From OCS155 cluster bacterium AG-349-E07 (GTDB lineage: Bacteria; Actinomycetota; Acidimicrobiia; Actinomarinales; Actinomarinaceae): 64,000 bases of DNA. Positions 6,009-62,025 of this stretch are shown here, in pieces. The translations under genes and the position numbers were made by a program. The stretch is from assembly GCA_003281085.1 (NCBI GenBank), contig QCCZ01000001.1:251433-315432 (forward strand). Reading direction: 5' to 3'. The notes beneath the pieces were generated by a model. It did not search any database and had not been told where the DNA came from. It saw nothing but the letters and a program-made list of their open reading frames with translations. Numbering within the stretch: the stretch's first letter is position 1; each line of letters opens with the position of its first letter.

Positions 6009-6245
6009 ATGGAAATAAAATTAGAGTTTTGTGTAGTCTGAAACTACACCCCTCGTGCAGTTAGTACGATAGAAGACATCTTAGAAATTTACGGAAACAA
6101 AGTAACCTCGATCAATTTAATTCCAAGTGGTGGAGGAGTATTTGAATTCCACCTAGATGACAATTTATTATTTTCAAAAAAAGAACTAGGTCGACATACT
6201 GAGGACGGTGAGATTCTTAAGCTCATAGAAGAAGCGCTTGATTGA
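6009..6245 (+). CDS. SelW/SelT/SelH (Rdx) family selenoprotein, 78 aa, Sec at codon 11 (TGA 6039-6041)
   Basis: MEIKLEFCVV-U-NYTPRAV...LIPSGGGVFEFHLDDNLLFSKKELGRH: CxxU plus GxFEV-like and FSK Rdx motifs continue in frame past the TGA. Confidence 0.93.
6053..6069 (+). promoter_or_regulatory. Candidate bacterial SECIS hairpin of the Rdx selenoprotein
   Basis: TCGTGC-AGTTA-GTACGA 6-bp stem (one G-U pair); loop begins 17 nt after the UGA and has G at its second position. Confidence 0.5.
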
Positions 6246-6976
6246 GTCTACCTTTTGACCTAACCCTTTTTGAATTAATCCTTATTGCTCTATTAATCTT
6301 TATAGGATCATCAGTTCAAGGAATACTGGGATTTGGATTTGCTGTTATTGCATCACCTATAGTTGTACAAATTGAAGCACTGTTAGTTCCTCAACTCTTA
6401 TCACTATTGGGTTTACCGTTAGCAATTCGAGTATTTGTAAGAGAAAGAAATAAAGTTGATTTAAGTTCAGTAAAACCTTTAGTCGCAGGCAGGTTTGTTG
6501 GGGGGCCAATCGGTTTGTTGTTTTTATCAATATTAAATGAAAAATATCTTTCTATTTCTGTAGGTTTAATAGTTTTTTTAGCTGGAATAGCTTCTTTTTT
6601 TGGATGGGTAATTAAAAGAAACAAAACCAATTCTTTCATTGCAGGTACATTTTCTGGAATTTTTGGAATGATTGCCGCAATAGGAGGCCCTCCAATTGCT
6701 CTTCTGTATCGAGATGCCGATCCAGACGAATTTAGACCATCATTAAATAGTGTTTTTATAATTGGAATACTAATCACTTTGTCTTTGCTTGCCTTTACTG
6801 GAAGGATCTACATTGATCACATTTATTTATTTTTGATCAATATTCCATTTGTTTTTTTAGGAATTAGATTATCAAGCTTAATTTTTTCTAAAGTTTCTCA
6901 GAGTTTTCTGTCTGCGTCAGTGACTTATTTTTCTATTTTTTCTGGTTTATATGTGATATTAAGAAATATAAATTAG
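6242..6976 (+). CDS. TauE/SafE (TSUP) family sulfite/organosulfur exporter
   Basis: VQGILGFGF and AIGGPP motifs, about 8 TM; TTG start overlaps the Rdx stop (TTGA). Confidence 0.88.
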   Translation: MSLPFDLTLFELILIALLIFIGSSVQGILGFGFAVIASPIVVQIEALLVPQLLSLLGLPLAIRVFVRERNKVDLSSVKPLVAGRFVGGPIGLLFLSILNEKYLSISVGLIVFLAGIASFFGWVIKRNKTNSFIAGTFSGIFGMIAAIGGPPIALLYRDADPDEFRPSLNSVFIIGILITLSLLAFTGRIYIDHIYLFLINIPFVFLGIRLSSLIFSKVSQSFLSASVTYFSIFSGLYVILRNIN

Positions 6977-29188: not shown

Positions 29189-31337
29189 ATTAAAAAGCTT
29201 AAAGGGCAATGATTATGTTCTACTTCTATCTGCAGGAGCTTCTCTTGGTACATTATTTCTTTGGGGAGCCAGCTATATTTTTCCTGAAGGAGAGATAATT
29301 GAAGGAAGACGTGTTTTTGAAAATATTCCTAAAGTCCTTCAATATATATTTTATGTATTAAGTGCTTCTACTATTTACCTATCTGGTTATCTACTTTCTC
29401 TTAGAGTTAAAAACTGGACAAGAGGTAAAGAAGAAAAAAGAAATGTAAAATTTTCTGCTCGTCTTTGGAGCTTTTTTGATGGAATAACAATGAGAACAGT
29501 GCTTAGGTTTAAAGCTGCCGGACTAATGCATTCTTTAATATATATTGGTTTTCTTGGTTTGTTTGCTGGGACTATTACTCTTGAAATTCATCATTTAATG
29601 CCTCCTAAATGGAAGTTTCTACAAGGAACTACCTATATTGTTTATTCATTCCTTCTTGAGTTAGCAACTATAGCTTATCTAATCGGTCTTTTCTGGGCTT
29701 TAATAAGAAGATTAAGAGGCGCAGAATATCGAATACAAACAAAGACTACAGTTGATGATTATCTAACGTTATCTTTGTTAATTTTTATTGGTATATCAGG
29801 TGTTACTACAGAAGCTGGAAGAATTGCACTTGAAAATTTTCCAGATTACGAGAAGTGGTCATTTATTGGATATTTTGTAGCTGATTTCTTAAATCTATCA
29901 AACCCCGAGCTGTTTCATAGGGTTTCCTGGGTTTTGCACGTTGTTTCTTTCTTCGTGTTTTTGATTGCATTACCTATTTCTAAGTTACGCCATATTATTA
30001 CGTCACCAATAAACATGTTTATGTCACCTAAAGAGAGACACAAAGGCGCTATGAGAGATATTGGAAACTTACTAGAAGCAGAAGATATTGATAATGTTGG
30101 CACAGAAATAATTGACCATTTCACATGGAAACAACTTATGGACTTAGATGCTTGCACAGTTTGCGGAAGATGTACTTCAGTATGTCCAGCAAATCAAACA
30201 GGTAAATCTCTTGATCCAAGAGAGATAATCTTAAAAGTAGGGCAAGTAATGTCTGAATCTGGAGATCCTGCTGTTCCAGCAACTATCAGCACGCCAGGAC
30301 CCCTAAAAGTAAATTCATCAAATGTTTTTGAAAGAATAACCTCAGAAGAAGTCTGGGCCTGTACTTCGTGTAGAGCTTGTGATGAAATATGTCCTGTAAA
30401 TATAGAAATTTTGGACAAGATACTTGATATGAGAAGACATCTAGCTTTGATGGAATCAGATTTTCCATCAGAACTTGGTAAAGCTTATGTTGCAATGGAG
30501 AATTCATCTAACCCTTGGGGGGCATCACAAAACGATCGTTTGAAGTGGACGGAAGATCTTGATTTTGAGGTACCTGTTATTGATGAATCGAACTCTGAAG
30601 AATACGATTATTTATACTGGATCGGATGTGCCGGAGCTTTCGACGATAGAAATGTGCCTGTGACAAAAGCTGTTGCGACACTTTTAAAGCGAGCTGGAGT
30701 ATCGTACGCTGTTTTGGGGCCCAAGGAAGTTTGTACGGGAGATTCTGCACGAAGAACAGGTAATGAATTTGTTTTTCAACAACTTGCGATACAAAATATT
30801 GAAAACATGAACAATCTAAAAGTAGATAAGATCATTACACAGTGTCCACACTGTTTTAATACCATCGCAAATGAATATCCTCAACTTGGCGGCGAGTATA
30901 AAGTTATTCATCACAGTCAATTACTAACAGAACTTGTTCAGTCTGGGAGAATAGAAGTTGGAACGAGTGACAAGCCTTACAAAATTACATATCACGATTC
31001 ATGTTACTTAGGTCGGCATAATGACATTTATACAGCACCGAGAGAAATCGTTGGCTCAATTGGTGGAATAGAAATTAGAGAAATGAAGCGCCAAGGAACC
31101 CAGAGCTTTTGTTGTGGTGCTGGCGGTGGAAGAATGTGGATGGAAGAGTCTGTTGGCAAAAAAGTAAATGTTGAAAGATCTCAAGAAGCAATTGAGACCG
31201 GTGCTGATGAAGTTGCAGTTGCTTGTCCATTCTGCTACATAATGATGGATGACGGTGTTAAAGAGCTTGGATATGGGGATAACGTAAGAGTTAGAGACGT
31301 GTCTTTAATACTTTTAGACAACCTCAAAAAAGACTAA
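29181..31337 (+). CDS. Membrane-bound Fe-S oxidoreductase (FadF/EtfD/HdrD-like, CCG domains)
   Basis: N-terminal TM region with His residues, CTVCGRCTSVCP and CTSCRACDEICP ferredoxin motifs, YHDSCYLGR, CCGAGGG. Confidence 0.9.
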   Translation: MNKLKSLKGNDYVLLLSAGASLGTLFLWGASYIFPEGEIIEGRRVFENIPKVLQYIFYVLSASTIYLSGYLLSLRVKNWTRGKEEKRNVKFSARLWSFFDGITMRTVLRFKAAGLMHSLIYIGFLGLFAGTITLEIHHLMPPKWKFLQGTTYIVYSFLLELATIAYLIGLFWALIRRLRGAEYRIQTKTTVDDYLTLSLLIFIGISGVTTEAGRIALENFPDYEKWSFIGYFVADFLNLSNPELFHRVSWVLHVVSFFVFLIALPISKLRHIITSPINMFMSPKERHKGAMRDIGNLLEAEDIDNVGTEIIDHFTWKQLMDLDACTVCGRCTSVCPANQTGKSLDPREIILKVGQVMSESGDPAVPATISTPGPLKVNSSNVFERITSEEVWACTSCRACDEICPVNIEILDKILDMRRHLALMESDFPSELGKAYVAMENSSNPWGASQNDRLKWTEDLDFEVPVIDESNSEEYDYLYWIGCAGAFDDRNVPVTKAVATLLKRAGVSYAVLGPKEVCTGDSARRTGNEFVFQQLAIQNIENMNNLKVDKIITQCPHCFNTIANEYPQLGGEYKVIHHSQLLTELVQSGRIEVGTSDKPYKITYHDSCYLGRHNDIYTAPREIVGSIGGIEIREMKRQGTQSFCCGAGGGRMWMEESVGKKVNVERSQEAIETGADEVAVACPFCYIMMDDGVKELGYGDNVRVRDVSLILLDNLKKD

Positions 31338-31651
31338 GAATTTTTTCCCATAAAAAAATGTGCAATATCCCCATTTGATTTATTAATGCTATAAATCACG
31401 TATATTGCAGTAGTAAGGTTGCCTAAAATTAAAACAAAAAATGACCATATAATTGTTGCAGACAAAGACTCTTTATAAGCAATCCACAAGCAAACTAGAA
31501 TAAATCCACCATAAAGATCTACAAGAGAAACTATACCCCATGGTAAATCTGGAATAGGAGAGTCAAATAAAGAAACTTGATTTTGTGCCCAAATTATTAC
31601 TCCTATCATTGAGACACTTATAAAGTATGAAATTAATTTTGTTATAGTCAT
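31334..31651 (-). CDS. DUF1475-like small membrane protein
   Basis: PWGIVSLVDLYGGF, WIAYKE, LGN motifs. Confidence 0.75.
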   Translation of the reverse strand: MTITKLISYFISVSMIGVIIWAQNQVSLFDSPIPDLPWGIVSLVDLYGGFILVCLWIAYKESLSATIIWSFFVLILGNLTTAIYVIYSINKSNGDIAHFFMGKNS

Positions 31652-31680: not shown

Positions 31681-32307
31681 ATGAATGATAAAAAAATAAT
31701 ATCCCGCATATTACGTCTTGATAAAGAGATTTATAACGAGCTTTTAGTTCAGGATGGAGCTTTTCAAAAATCTATTGCTATCTTTGTAAGCACGACAATT
31801 TTAGTCACTATGAGTGGCTTTAGATTTCTTTCAGGTCTGTTAGATTATTTACAAGAAAACTTAATTTTATTTCAACAGGATTTTCAACAAGAATTTTCTC
31901 AAGAAGAATTTAATTTGTTTCAATCATTGATTGAAGAGTTGCAAACTTTTATAAACTCTTCAGACAGTACTACTTCATTATTTTCATCGGCCTTCTCATC
32001 TCTCGTTGCCACAGTTACAGGATTAGTGATAATTTACTTAATACTCAGATTTCTTTTCAGGAAAGATCCAATTCCTAAAGATCTTCTAATGATCAATTTT
32101 TTTGCTTCAACTCCATGCTTGCTTGTCGTGCCTGCACTATTTGTCTCGTCAATTTTTCTTCAGGGTTTTTTAATTTTGATAGTTTCAATATATTCAATTG
32201 TTTCTTTTGGTTCAGGGCTAAAACAAGTTTATATGTTGAGAAATATTGAAGTCATACTATTAATTGTTTCATTAACGTTTGGTACAAGTATTTTAGGTGG
32301 TGCATAG
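31681..32307 (+). CDS. Hypothetical multi-TM protein (Yip1-like topology)
   Basis: About 5 hydrophobic segments; N-terminal RILRLDKEIYNEL. Confidence 0.6.
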   Translation: MNDKKIISRILRLDKEIYNELLVQDGAFQKSIAIFVSTTILVTMSGFRFLSGLLDYLQENLILFQQDFQQEFSQEEFNLFQSLIEELQTFINSSDSTTSLFSSAFSSLVATVTGLVIIYLILRFLFRKDPIPKDLLMINFFASTPCLLVVPALFVSSIFLQGFLILIVSIYSIVSFGSGLKQVYMLRNIEVILLIVSLTFGTSILGGA

Positions 32308-35923: not shown

Positions 35924-35934
35924 AAGGAGGTGGA

Positions 35935-36975
35935 ATGAGATTAACTGAGTACTCACATGGTGCTGGTTGAGCATGTAAGCTCTCACAAAAAGAGCTTGCT
36001 CAGGTACTGACGCATTTTAGACAACAAAATAATTCCAATACTTCACAAATACTGGTTGGTCTAGATTCGCCTGACGATGGAGGTGTAATTGATATTGGTA
36101 ATGGAATCAGAATAGTTCAGACTGTAGACTTTTTTACACCTATATTGGATAACCCATTTGATTGGGGAAGAGTTGCAGCCGCTAACGCATTATCTGATAT
36201 TTATGCAATGGGTGGAACCCCAATATCTTCCTTACAGCTTGTTTCATGGCCAAGAGAAGATTTAAGTTTTGAAATATTGTCTGAAGTAATAAAAGGTGGT
36301 TTAGAGACTATGCAAAGTGTTGGTTGTAACATCATTGGAGGACACAGTATCGACGACAAAGAGCCAAAGTATGGTTTTGCTGTAACAGGAATAATCAATG
36401 ATGTTATTTATAAAAAAAGAAATCTTCAAGTAGGCGATAAACTTTTTTTGACTAAACCTTTAGGTTCTGGAATTATCTCTTCCGCTATAAAAAAGAATAT
36501 AGCAAGTGAAAAAGCGATATCTGAAGCAACTGAAGTGATGACAACATTGAATGACAAAGCACTAGAAGCTGCCAGAGAATTAAATGCAAATGCAATAACA
36601 GATGTCACTGGTTTTGGACTATTAGGGCACTTAATAGAAATGATTGGAGATTCTGAAGTTACAGTAAATATATATTTAGATAATGTACCAGTTATAGAAC
36701 ATGCAAAAGAATATTTCAACAATGGAGTTTATCCTTCTGGGTCTAAAAGAAATTTTGATTCAGCTAAAGAAAATATAATTTATAACGATGATCAAGAATC
36801 TTTTGTAAAAATATTATCAGATGCTCAAACAAGTGGTGGTTTACTAATTTCAGCACCAAATGACAACTCAATAGATTTAGATGATATATCTGACAGACTT
36901 GGACTAAATATATGGGAAATTGGAGATATTGTTTCTAGATATAAAAATAAAGTCAATATCATTAATAGCAAATGA
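35935..36975 (+). CDS. selD: Selenide,water dikinase, selenocysteine-containing (TGA 35968-35970), 346 aa
   Basis: AGGAGG SD; MRLTEYSHGAG-U-ACKL, then DDGGV, VQTVDFFTPI, AANALSDIYAMGG, GGHS, TDVTGFGLLGH, DAQTSGGLL, all in frame with track ORF 36145..36975. Confidence 0.96.
35977..36014 (+). promoter_or_regulatory. Candidate SECIS region of selD
   Basis: Hairpin AAGCTCT-CACAAAA-AGAGCTT (35977-35997) and TGC-TCAG-GTA-CTGA-c-GCA (35997-36014), the latter resembling the CAGGTCTG apical element of E. coli fdhF. Confidence 0.5.
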
Positions 36976-37895
36976 TAAAAACAATTACTAAATTTTTTGC
37001 TTTTGCGACAATCTTGAAAAACTTGCTTGAAACAAAAAAGGGAGATATTTCTGGTAATACTCAAATTCATCCAAGTAAGTTTCCTGGCAGAACTATTTTT
37101 GTAAGGGAAAAAGAGTATTTTATTAGAGAATCATATGTAGACGGAACAACCCCTATTGTTTTTTTGCATAGCTGGGGGACTGATTCGTTAGGTAGTTGGT
37201 TTAAAGTATTGCCAAAAATAAAAAATAAAAATTCATTTATTGCAATTGATTTAAGAAATCATGGAAAGTCAGATTCAAGTTGGAAAAGATGGGACGTAGA
37301 CGAAAATGCAGATCTGGTTATAAGCATTCTAGAAAAACTTGGTATAGAAGAGTGTGATATTGTTGGTTGGTCGATGGGAAGCGCTGTTGGAATGTCTGTT
37401 GCTAGAAAAAAACAATCCTTAATTAGAAAATTAGTTTTAATAACCCCATTTAGCTGGCTAGGCGGTGCTGTTTATAGTGATAAATTAGCATTTAAGGTTT
37501 TCATAAGTTTTGTAAGAATTCGAGAAAGACTTTTTCCAAATTTTAATCCTAGATCAAAATTTTCTTTCTTAAGGAAATCCCAATCTATTGAAGATGAGTA
37601 CACAGAGTGGGCATGGAATAATCTACATAGGTCAAAAGATGACTTTATATATGGTGATGGAGGAAGGTTCGTTGTACCTTATGATGCAAGACCATGGATT
37701 CATGAAATACATTCTGAAACCTTGGTCATTACTGGTGGCAAAGATAAACTAGTCCCTGAAGAAACATCTAATGAAGTGATAAATCGTTTAAATACTGTCA
37801 AATCGAAAGTTATTAATGATGCTGGTCATTCTGTTCCGTGGACTCACGCAGATGAACTATTAGAAGAGATTAATAGCTTTTTAAACAATGAATAA
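36972..37895 (+). CDS. Alpha/beta hydrolase
   Basis: FLHSWG, IDLRNHG, GWSMG nucleophile elbow, GGKD, AGH. Confidence 0.9.
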   Translation: MIKTITKFFAFATILKNLLETKKGDISGNTQIHPSKFPGRTIFVREKEYFIRESYVDGTTPIVFLHSWGTDSLGSWFKVLPKIKNKNSFIAIDLRNHGKSDSSWKRWDVDENADLVISILEKLGIEECDIVGWSMGSAVGMSVARKKQSLIRKLVLITPFSWLGGAVYSDKLAFKVFISFVRIRERLFPNFNPRSKFSFLRKSQSIEDEYTEWAWNNLHRSKDDFIYGDGGRFVVPYDARPWIHEIHSETLVITGGKDKLVPEETSNEVINRLNTVKSKVINDAGHSVPWTHADELLEEINSFLNNE

Positions 37896-46410: not shown

Positions 46411-47526
46411 TTAATTTTGGCTTGCTGCAACACTTGCTATGATAATTATTAAAGTTATCACACCTGCGGATGCAATTAAAACTTCATTTCTGGTAATTTT
46501 TATTTTTGGTGCTGAGCTCATCACACTCGCAAATAAAAGTATCGCAGCTGAAATTATTAAGGCAAACAAAGGTGCATAATCATGAAAGTTAAGGAAAACT
46601 TGAGCAATCGCAACGGATATGACTCCACCTACAACAATAGCCCCCAATGGAATAACAATAGAACCAACAATCCTATTTCTAATTTTATTAGCTTCGGTAT
46701 TTTCATCACTTTCTAGTCCTTTAGGGACTCCTAAAATCATTGAAAGTACAGAAATTGCCGCTTGTATGAATGTTGACAAAATCACTATTCTCCAAAACGC
46801 TCCTCCAACACTGATAAGGTTTGTGACAGGATCTTCGGGTAAAATTCCTAAGATTGTTTGACCGACACTATTTATAATATAAAAAGCTGATGAGGACCCA
46901 AAGACAAGACCTAGTCCGACACCGGTGTATATAGATTCCCTATCATTTGTAAGCACCCCAAAACCTTCATAATTAGTTTCTAGAAATTTTTTGATATTTA
47001 AGGAATTTAATGCTCCAATAAATGCAGTTGTTAATGAAACAATAAGCACAAAAGAAACAGTGCTATATTCTGCAGTTAGTTTTTGGGTTTCAGCTTCTAA
47101 AATTAAACCATCATAAAGAAAAGAACTTGCAAGCAGTCCTTGAATGAACCCTGCTAAAACTCCAAAACCGAGTCCATACTTTACAGATTTTAAAATTTTT
47201 TGACTTATAGAAACGGGTGGAGGTGAATCGTCAACTATAACAGTTGCTATAGCACTGATCTCTTCAGCCGGTATCTCAAGTGGTGTCTCTTCAACAATCT
47301 CTTCTGTTTCATTTTCGATAACTTGTTTTTCAACAGCTACGTCTGTTTTTTCAACGGTAGTTACTTCTGAAATAGGGGTCGGTATTGAATCACCACCACT
47401 CCAGTTATTTAATATATCATCTGAAGAGACGCCAGTTGCTTCTGCCCTAGCTTGAATAGATCTAGATAAAAGATCTAGTGGTATACCACTAGAGCTACTT
47501 AGCTGTTCTAATTTTTGTCCATCCAT
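46411..47526 (-). CDS. Hypothetical membrane protein at the end of the oxidase operon
   Basis: Small N-terminal helical domain, acidic linker, about 7 TM segments; same strand as and 17 bp after ctaG. Confidence 0.75.
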   Translation of the reverse strand: MDGQKLEQLSSSSGIPLDLLSRSIQARAEATGVSSDDILNNWSGGDSIPTPISEVTTVEKTDVAVEKQVIENETEEIVEETPLEIPAEEISAIATVIVDDSPPPVSISQKILKSVKYGLGFGVLAGFIQGLLASSFLYDGLILEAETQKLTAEYSTVSFVLIVSLTTAFIGALNSLNIKKFLETNYEGFGVLTNDRESIYTGVGLGLVFGSSSAFYIINSVGQTILGILPEDPVTNLISVGGAFWRIVILSTFIQAAISVLSMILGVPKGLESDENTEANKIRNRIVGSIVIPLGAIVVGGVISVAIAQVFLNFHDYAPLFALIISAAILLFASVMSSAPKIKITRNEVLIASAGVITLIIIIASVAASQN

Positions 47527-60931: not shown

Positions 60932-61261
60932 TTATTTCATTATAGGTAATTGGCCATTTTCAGAAGATTTTGAAAGCTCTTCTTCAGCAATAATTTGAGA
61001 TTCTCTAACAGCTAAAACTACTTTTCCAGTTGGAGGCCAGATAAATTTCCATGCACCACTAGCTACAGCCCAGAACTGCTGTCCTGTATCAACATCAATA
61101 AGAGGAAGTGCTTCTGAAGTTTTTTCACTACCAGCTGGTACAAGAAGTCCTGACTTAGTAATTGTCTCTTCTTTTAGGTGACCAACTCTCCAACCTGGAG
61201 AAACTTTGAATCCGGCAGGTGCTTCTTGCACCTCATCTAATAAGTTTTTTTCTTCTGCCAT
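60932..61261 (-). CDS. Divergent GroES/Cpn10-like protein
   Basis: EETITKSGLLVP mobile-loop-like motif and C-terminal G..VLAVRESQIIA; the V.AVG.G roof segment is missing. Confidence 0.55.
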   Translation of the reverse strand: MAEEKNLLDEVQEAPAGFKVSPGWRVGHLKEETITKSGLLVPAGSEKTSEALPLIDVDTGQQFWAVASGAWKFIWPPTGKVVLAVRESQIIAEEELSKSSENGQLPIMK

Positions 61262-61440: not shown

Positions 61441-62025
61441 ATGAAAAGTTTTCACCAAATATTTAATGAGCTTAAGAAAGATAGAGGATTAAGCAACAAA
61501 CAGATTGCTTCATTTACTGGTGTAAAACTAAAAGAAGTTAAACAATGGGAAGCAGGAACCAGTTTTCCAATTGAAACTAAGGTAGTTGATGCACTAGAAG
61601 GATTACTAGGTACTGAAATTAGCGAATCATTAGAAGGATACAGTTCGAAAAGCAAAATAAATAGCCAAGTCAAAACTGCCGAGGACGATATTTTCAAAGT
61701 AAAAAAAGAAAAAATAGATGTTACAAATACAAAGATTGATAAGTTACGAAACTTGTTTCAAAAACAACCTCAGAATACTACGGAGTATGAATTTGATAAT
61801 GAAATTCAACACATAACGGATGATTACTATTTTGAAGAAGACACAGCTGTGCCTGCACAAAATGTTTTAGAAAAACCCTATATATATGATGAAAATCAAA
61901 TAGGTTTTTATTTTTCGAGAAATTTAAAAACTATTGGTCTGCTTTCTGTTTTAGGTGTAATTATTTTTAGTTTTTTTCAGCTATTTTGGGACTCCTTTAA
62001 CTTATTTTTAGAAAACTTACTGTGA
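61441..62025 (+). CDS. XRE-type HTH protein with C-terminal TM anchor
   Basis: RGLSNKQIASFTGV..V.QWEAG..FP; hydrophobic C-terminus. Confidence 0.75.
   Translation: MKSFHQIFNELKKDRGLSNKQIASFTGVKLKEVKQWEAGTSFPIETKVVDALEGLLGTEISESLEGYSSKSKINSQVKTAEDDIFKVKKEKIDVTNTKIDKLRNLFQKQPQNTTEYEFDNEIQHITDDYYFEEDTAVPAQNVLEKPYIYDENQIGFYFSRNLKTIGLLSVLGVIIFSFFQLFWDSFNLFLENLL

Follow-up and report, generated by a model that had tools for sequence, protein, structure and literature searches.

The window analysed here is a stretch of 64,000 nucleotides from OCS155 cluster bacterium AG-349-E07, corresponding to C1:251433-315432, where C1 is contig 1 of the source genome (G000). The assembly of this genome amounts to 954,793 bp in 24 contigs, has a GC content of 32.6% and is 85% complete, with a genome size of about 1.1 Mb. 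A preceding sequence-only reading of the window had assigned it to a streamlined actinobacterium, which agrees with the 0.95 Mb assembly, its base composition and its closest named records, those of Candidatus Actinomarina. The subject of this analysis is the selD gene of the window, encoding selenide,water dikinase, in which codon 12, at the position of the catalytic residue, is an in-frame UGA. From the sequence data it can be concluded that this is very probably a working selD gene, with the UGA decoded as selenocysteine (Sec) by the canonical bacterial pathway. The gene and its start signals are, in window coordinates:

35925..35930, forward strand: Shine-Dalgarno sequence AGGAGG, 4 nucleotides (nt) ahead of the selD ATG at 35935
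35935..36975, forward strand: selD, selenide,water dikinase, 346 amino acids (aa), predicted Sec at residue 12
35968..35970, forward strand: in-frame UGA, codon 12 of selD (predicted Sec12), in the motif HGAG-U-ACK, equivalent to Cys17 of Escherichia coli SelD

When the TGA is translated as U, the selD frame yields a polypeptide of 346 residues that starts with MRLTEYSHGAG-U-ACK. This polypeptide matches the selD model TIGR00476 with 374.9 bits (cut-off 125) over residues 2-310, and NF002098 with 348.4 bits (cut-off 299) over residues 1-340. It contains both AIRS domains as defined by Pfam, PF00586 at residues 47-154 and PF02769 at residues 165-340. In a full-length HMMER pairwise alignment with E. 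coli SelD (PDB entry 3U0O, E 2.4e-79), U12 falls on the catalytic Cys17 and K15 on Lys20. The strong Shine-Dalgarno sequence and the GAG-U-ACK motif with TGA at the catalytic Cys/Sec position, both already recognized in the sequence-only reading, are thus borne out. A GGAGG or GGGGG-like site precedes selD in 19 of the 20 genus relatives listed, with locus L038 having only GGGGG. Among named public records, the closest, with a SelD identity of up to 97%, are titled uncultured Candidatus Actinomarina sp. The gene ends with a TGA at 36973-36975, which is immediately followed by a TAA, forming a tandem stop TGA-TAA in an organism that is able to read UGA as Sec. The selD stop is overlapped by the ATG (36972) of the next gene, an alpha/beta hydrolase at 36972-37895.

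The TGA at codon 12 is highly conserved. Within the genus it is present in 23 of 24 genomes of a first draw (the remaining genome, G007, is 80% complete and gave no match) and in 45 of 47 genomes of a second draw, of which the other two gave no selD match; a selD gene of the cysteine (Cys) type is found in none of these 47 genomes. The codon is kept in all of 20 relatives examined, down to 59% identity. Of the 80 closest public loci, which belong to several phyla, 79 have it as well, and the exception is a TGC in a record labelled Binatia. Among 153 Acidimicrobiia genomes outside the genus, 42 have a Sec-type and 43 a Cys-type SelD, while a search at E 1e-60 gave no match in 68. Roughly one in two of the sampled Acidimicrobiia with a SelD thus has the Sec type, which shows that this form is common in the class and is not peculiar to the streamlined lineage.

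Without read-through, translation table 11 gives a single ORF (open reading frame) at this locus, 36145-36975, which starts with a TTG at 36145, equivalent to codon 71 of selD. Accordingly, the TGA might be a true stop in a selD gene that is decaying or N-terminally truncated, translated at most from this TTG, and some pseudogenes do occur in small genomes. However, a protein made from this start would be without residues 1-70, and with them the catalytic loop and a portion of the AIRS N-domain would be lost. In addition, the 11 codons that precede the TGA are conserved at the protein level while their third positions vary by synonymous changes, indicating that this segment, which has its own Shine-Dalgarno site, is translated in the selD frame. 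The fact that 79 of 80 loci from several phyla have their TGA at precisely this position, together with the presence of a full set of Sec-decoding genes (see below), further argues against a true stop, which is considered extremely unlikely.

An assembly or sequencing error that replaced TGT or TGC by TGA has an even lower, practically negligible probability. Contigs from three DNA sequencing runs (three studies) and one metatranscriptome library, four studies in all, cover positions 35968-35970 without any variant; a Cys codon at 35968, which would have contradicted the sequence-only reading, is seen in none of them. Moreover, 45 of 47 genomes of the genus share this TGA codon. The only nearby difference in these contigs is a G to A change at position 35979. 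The source genome has a G at this position, forming a G-C pair in the first of the two hairpins described below, whereas the contigs of all four runs have an A. An A, resulting in an A·C mismatch, is present in all but one (L077) of 49 Actinomarina-like loci.

A third alternative is that the UGA is read by something other than Sec-tRNA-Sec, either through near-cognate suppression by Trp or Cys tRNAs or through a lineage-wide reassignment of UGA. Low-level near-cognate read-through of UGA is generally known for bacteria. In the source genome, however, TGA serves as an ordinary stop codon, terminating 197 of 926 ORF-based genes (21%), from which it follows that selD is subject to local recoding and not to a changed code. 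Domain-supported in-frame TGAs are limited to Cys-equivalent redox or catalytic sites (4 of 45 candidates, see below), the genes for tRNA-Sec, SelA and SelB are present and conserved, and the hairpins that follow the UGA are specific to Sec-type genes. A non-Sec reading is thus very unlikely, and decoding as Sec remains by far the preferred explanation.

The Sec-decoding genes of the source genome other than selD are located as follows, selC in window coordinates and selA and selB in contig coordinates:

61296..61388, reverse strand: selC, tRNA-Sec with anticodon UCA, detected with ARAGORN and with the Rfam model RF01852 (75.4 bits, threshold 47, model positions 1-91)
G000:C1:106453-107748: selA, TIGR00474 383.3 bits against a cut-off of 267.9, match at C1:106480-107739
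G000:C1:107745-109419: selB, 557 aa, overlapping selA by ATGA

The tRNA-Sec gene, which the sequence-only reading had placed elsewhere in the window, lies 25 kb downstream of selD. The same reading had observed that selA and selB are not in the window and had proposed to look for them in the genome; both are indeed found as an overlapping pair on the same contig, 145 kb upstream. SelB contains a GTP_EFTU domain (residues 4-146) and the SECIS-binding domain SelB-wing_3 (PF09107, residues 507-547, E 3e-12), where SECIS stands for selenocysteine insertion sequence, and it covers positions 2-570 of the 581 positions of the TIGR00475 model. In a survey of 41 genus genomes, G000 included, a tRNA-Sec match of at least 70 bits is obtained for 36 genomes. 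For selU, the source genome contains only a fragment of 20 bits (cut-off 219.75); the selenophosphate produced by SelD is therefore most likely used for Sec. A location of selA and selB beside selC was considered and rejected, since the ORFs adjoining selC encode HflX, aminopeptidase N, 6-phosphogluconate dehydrogenase and a protein of 109 aa without an assigned family. The two ORFs that flank the tRNA-Sec gene have no match, or only a weak helix-turn-helix match to the RstR family (26.6 bits against 80). At the thresholds used, no Pfam family is assigned to the window ORFs 60932-61261 (reverse), 61441-62025 (forward), 46411-47526 (reverse), 31334-31651 (reverse) and 31681-32307 (forward), which encode 105-371 aa.

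Downstream of the selD UGA the messenger RNA can form two hairpins, in line with the hairpins proposed in the sequence-only reading:

35978..35996, forward strand: hairpin 1, stem AGCUCU/AGAGCU, loop CACAAAA
36000..36010, forward strand: hairpin 2, UCAG-GUA-CUGA, with the loop G at +37, counted from the U of the UGA

The region following the UGA folds with a free energy of -14.1 to -15.5 kcal/mol (z about -2.4), and only 3-4 of 200 shuffled sequences are equally stable. In Actinomarina, hairpin 1 is extended by a lower stem, in which UGAGC (35968-35972), including the UGA itself, pairs with GCUCA (35998-36002); the extended structure at 35968-36002 has a free energy of -13.3 kcal/mol. Of 24 distinct Actinomarina sequences, 22 form the lower stem with all five pairs. 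Hairpin 2 is a 4-bp remnant of a 6-bp hairpin with the consensus GCNCAG-GUN-CUGNGC, and its 4-bp core is kept in 23 of the 24 distinct sequences. In an alignment restricted to the genus 96% of the cells pair, but just one pair covaries; as this result is not decisive, a wider alignment was needed. Among 80 Sec-type selD sequences, 54 of which are distinct, pair 33-43 of hairpin 2 occurs as UA (30), GC (13) or CG (7), and pair 36-40 as GC (36), AU (13) or GU (4). The resulting covariation score of 0.253 for hairpin 2 compares to 0.134 in shuffled alignments, with none of 500 shuffles reaching the observed score, while slid controls score at most 0.124.

The association of both hairpins with the Sec codon is evident from a comparison of Sec-type and Cys-type selD genes, for which 48 sequences in all, from other Acidimicrobiia plus one Binatia record, were collected and 21 Sec-type and 24 Cys-type sequences were used, with the following outcome:

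Hairpin 1, all 6 pairs form: 18/21 Sec-type, 1/24 Cys-type
Hairpin 1, mean number of pairs out of 6: 5.86 Sec-type, 4.17 Cys-type
Hairpin 2, all 6 pairs form: 17/21 Sec-type, 0/24 Cys-type
Hairpin 2, mean number of pairs out of 6: 5.76 Sec-type, 2.38 Cys-type
GUN loop in hairpin 2: 21/21 Sec-type, 15/24 Cys-type
Mean minimum free energy (MFE): -22.5 kcal/mol Sec-type, -14.0 kcal/mol Cys-type

The hairpins appear to have left their mark on the encoded protein. Sec-type SelD proteins keep either AQVL or AHVV after the catalytic loop, whereas the Cys-type proteins are variable at this position. In genes that encode AHVV instead of AQVL, the accompanying base changes maintain the pairing of the hairpin. 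The retention of AQVL or AHVV in the Sec-type proteins is apparently due to the RNA hairpin. The codons used after the UGA are rare in the source genome: CTC and CTG account for 4.4% and 3.3% of the Leu codons, GAG for 22% of the Glu codons and CAG for 22% of the Gln codons.

According to the consensus for bacterial SECIS elements (bSECIS) given in section 5 of the review PMC13188914, such elements are located 16-37 nt from the UGA and have a 4-16 bp stem capped by a 3-9 nt loop, with a G in one of the first two loop positions. An MFE of -7.5 kcal/mol or lower was applied as a further criterion. The GUA loop, the 4-bp stem and the 33-nt spacing of hairpin 2 fall within the rules for loop, stem and distance; its MFE is -0.7 kcal/mol when folded alone, while that of the whole region is -14.1 kcal/mol. 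Hairpin 2 is likely to represent the SelB-binding SECIS of selD. At the Rfam gathering threshold, the only hit in the window is tRNA-Sec, and no SECIS family is detected.

Several observations weigh against Sec insertion at codon 12, or against the role assigned to the hairpins. The loop of the stable hairpin 1 lacks a G and hence fails the G rule of the bSECIS consensus. Hairpin 2 of Actinomarina, with just 4 bp, is worth only -0.7 kcal/mol by itself, and in the stable fold its 5' arm is instead paired with the UGA region. The covariation and Sec/Cys counts derive from related genomes, which overstates the independence of the sequences, and 3 of the 48 sequences were dropped from the Sec/Cys comparison because the motif was not found. 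The metatranscriptome library may hold DNA; its covering contig does not demonstrate transcription of selD. The score of SelB, 202.2 bits, stays under the curated NCBIfam equivalog cut-off of TIGR00475 (242.25). The selA gene exceeds its cut-off in only 34 of the 41 genus genomes, and in searches with the proteins of the source genome neither selA nor selB was found in five relatives (G009, G010, G006, G017 and G041), which is no proof of their absence. One of these, G009, consists of a single contig of about 1.0 Mb. All five carry a TGA-containing selD, and all except G010, which has no Rdx match, also have the TGA-containing Rdx gene described below. Since the TGA-selD is present, the lack of selA and selB in these genomes is taken to reflect assembly gaps, most likely near a hypervariable region. 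A preprint on the genus, entitled 'Actinomarina, resolved' (bioRxiv 10.64898/2026.04.03.716425, April 2026), places selA at such a region in the part of its text that is available.

The sequence-only reading further anticipated that additional TGA-split genes would be present throughout the genome and pointed to an Rdx selenoprotein in the window. A genome-wide read-through scan reveals 45 candidates, 42 of which were scanned against Pfam as read-through translations. For two others, selB (12 extra codons) and gnd (10 extra codons), the scan covered only the sequence short of the extension, and a candidate antisense to secG (C12:1936-2229) was left out. In 4 of the 45 candidates a domain spans the TGA, with the predicted Sec at a Cys-equivalent redox or catalytic site. 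These are SelD and the following three proteins, the first in window coordinates and listed with its hairpin, the others in contig coordinates:

6009..6245, forward strand: Rdx/SelW-like selenoprotein, 78 aa, CVVU at residues 8-11, predicted Sec11, TGA at 6039-6041
6053..6069, forward strand: SECIS-like hairpin of Rdx, UCGUGC-AGUUA-GUACGA, 11 nt after the UGA, loop G at +22
C3:43877-44437, reverse strand: AhpD-like CMD selenoprotein, motif CEYU (CxxU)
C9:16677-17159, forward strand: Trx-like/Redoxin selenoprotein, motif UGVC (UxxC)

The expectation of further TGA-split genes thus holds for two genes beyond the window, the AhpD-like and Trx-like genes, but their number is modest, with four in all. 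This count is a lower bound, as the scan misses Sec residues within 8 codons of an end, products of less than 70 aa and the absent 15% of the genome. The other 41 candidates were rejected, having either no domain or a domain confined to the part before or after the TGA. At locus L007 (C1:78257-80038, reverse strand), a single TGA separates a DegT/DnrJ aminotransferase (residues 10-352) from a GT2 glycosyltransferase in the same frame (residues 376-531); this arrangement is read as probably two genes and not as a selenoprotein. A formate dehydrogenase is not found by the genome-wide scan.

The three additional selenoprotein genes are well conserved in the genus. The Rdx protein matches PF10262 with 58.8 bits (threshold 22.6, E 6.1e-16) over residues 3-74, a match that spans the TGA and supports the earlier recognition of this gene as an Rdx selenoprotein. 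Rdx is present in 39 of the 41 genomes of the genus, with 40 matches in all, each of them containing a single TGA. The AhpD-like gene is present in 35 of 41 genomes, and wherever a match extends over the Sec site it has the one TGA; the 36 orthologous matches of the Trx-like gene in the genus likewise have exactly one TGA each. All three genes have a simple hairpin of the consensus type after the UGA that is kept in 12 of 12 relatives examined. In Rdx the loop is AGUUA or AGUUG in these relatives. The Trx-like gene has UGA-N10-GGCGGG-AGUUA-CCUGUC, and the AhpD-like gene has UCUCC-GGUC-GGAGA at +24 to +37. A GU dinucleotide in the loop is common to the three hairpins. The SECIS of E. coli fdhF reportedly has G23 and U24 in its loop, a geometry that is nearly matched by the Rdx (G22, U23) and Trx-like (G21, U22) hairpins.

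The gene directly behind Rdx, with a 4-nt overlap, encodes a 244-aa membrane protein of the TauE/SafE family (PF01925); together the two genes occupy positions 6009-6976 of the window. The two genes are adjacent in every genus genome in which both are found, and they are missing together in G010 and G023. No in-frame TGA is present in the TauE gene in the 41 matches listed. Rdx and TauE may form a functional module, for example of a redox protein and an anion exporter.

Taken together, the pathway in Actinomarina serves at least four small redox or selenium proteins, namely SelD, the Rdx/SelW-like protein, the AhpD-like protein and the Trx-like protein. In the proposed mechanism, SelA would convert Ser-tRNA-Sec to Sec-tRNA-Sec with selenophosphate provided by SelD. 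The complex of SelB, GTP and Sec-tRNA-Sec would then be tethered, via the C-terminal winged helix of SelB, to a hairpin behind the UGA, most likely hairpin 2, and the tethered SelB would deliver Sec at codon 12 of selD. As SelD makes the selenophosphate that is needed for its own translation, the system would depend on itself; such a self-sustaining dependence of Sec-type SelD on SelD activity is established knowledge. A more tentative proposal, regarded as possible but rather doubtful, is that a two-hairpin SECIS is shared by the Sec-type selD genes of Actinomarina, of other Acidimicrobiia and, further out, of records labelled Marinimicrobia. In this arrangement the 3' hairpin GCNCAG-GUN-CUGNGC, with its loop at +37, would be the SelB site and the cause of the A-Q-V-L and A-H-V-V sequences. 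In Actinomarina it would have been eroded to 4 bp by AT pressure, and a lineage-specific lower stem would pair the UGA with the 5' arm of the hairpin. If this is true, the arrival of the ribosome could switch the fold of selD, turning the synthesis of SelD into a checkpoint of selenium supply for the entire pathway.

The presence of this pathway implies that one of the smallest free-living cells of the ocean maintains the machinery for a 21st amino acid to make no more than about four proteins. TGA-containing genes of this kind are split or missed by standard gene callers, and annotations of Actinomarina should extend selD and the Rdx, AhpD-like and Trx-like genes across the TGA. The double hairpin of selD provides a concrete and testable SECIS model where the Rfam models fail. 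It may be the only part of the system that is new: no description of a two-hairpin selD element was found in the literature searched, which included mycobacterial Sec work and did not reach the older SECIS literature.

SelD proteins with Sec in the catalytic position are known from other lineages. Guimaraes et al. reportedly described in 1996 a Sec-containing SelD of Haemophilus influenzae and of Methanocaldococcus jannaschii. As in Actinomarina, Sec takes the place of the catalytic Cys in the N-terminal loop of these proteins, and the enzyme needs its own product. The two organisms differ from Actinomarina in their lineage; here, the gene occurs in a genome of about 1.1 Mb in which the few other selenoproteins are small and thiol-oxidoreductase-like. 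SelD from E. coli (3U0O) shares with the Actinomarina protein the GxG(C/U)xxK loop, the N- and C-terminal AIRS domains and a full-length alignment, but it uses Cys, and its gene contains neither a UGA nor a SECIS, unlike the selD gene of Actinomarina with its UGA. The loop and the AIRS domains are also kept in SelD from Aquifex aeolicus (2YYE/2ZOD), which aligns over its full length with E 1.6e-67. In common with bSECIS elements, the hairpins described here lie immediately behind the UGA, the distance from UGA to loop being 16-33 nt. Compared to the bSECIS consensus, the selD element is different in having two hairpins, both specific to the Sec-type genes, of which the consensus-fitting one is distal (loop at +37) and has only 4 bp in Actinomarina.

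For Actinomarina itself, a Sec-type selD is a known kind of gene that has already been reported for the genus. The available part of the preprint (bioRxiv 10.64898/2026.04.03.716425) describes, for 84 complete genomes, selC, selA and selD along with a selB that is divergent and likewise falls short of its cut-off with KofamScan, and reports no YbbB. The selenoproteins predicted there number about 5 in each genome, among them a Sec-SelD of 342-346 aa that starts with MRLT. Some of its statements differ from the present results. In that text about half of the genomes have a Sec-SelD and the rest "presumably" a Cys form, whereas here the TGA is present in 45 of 47 genomes and a Cys form in none. 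A 78-aa family that is called uncharacterized in the preprint is identified here as Rdx/SelW-like (PF10262), a name that this selenoprotein can now carry; the words SelW, Rdx, AhpD and thioredoxin are absent from the part of its text that is available. The same part reports no SECIS with Rfam models, whereas hairpins are described here for all four genes. The selenoprotein group designated "K07090" in the preprint probably corresponds to the TauE gene behind Rdx, as a result of overlap-based mapping.

Finally, the set of four selenoproteins can be compared to the selenoproteome of marine samples. In Table 2 of the Global Ocean Sampling (GOS) survey (PMC2398784), as far as this source was available, the four most numerous prokaryotic selenoprotein families are SelW-like CxxU (427), SelD (357), Trx-like 1 UxxC (321) and AhpD-like 1 CxxU (299), which are exactly the four families of the source genome. 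The survey gives these families without organism assignment, and Actinomarina may contribute much of their counts. The match suggests that lineages like Actinomarina may shape the selenoproteome of the surface ocean.

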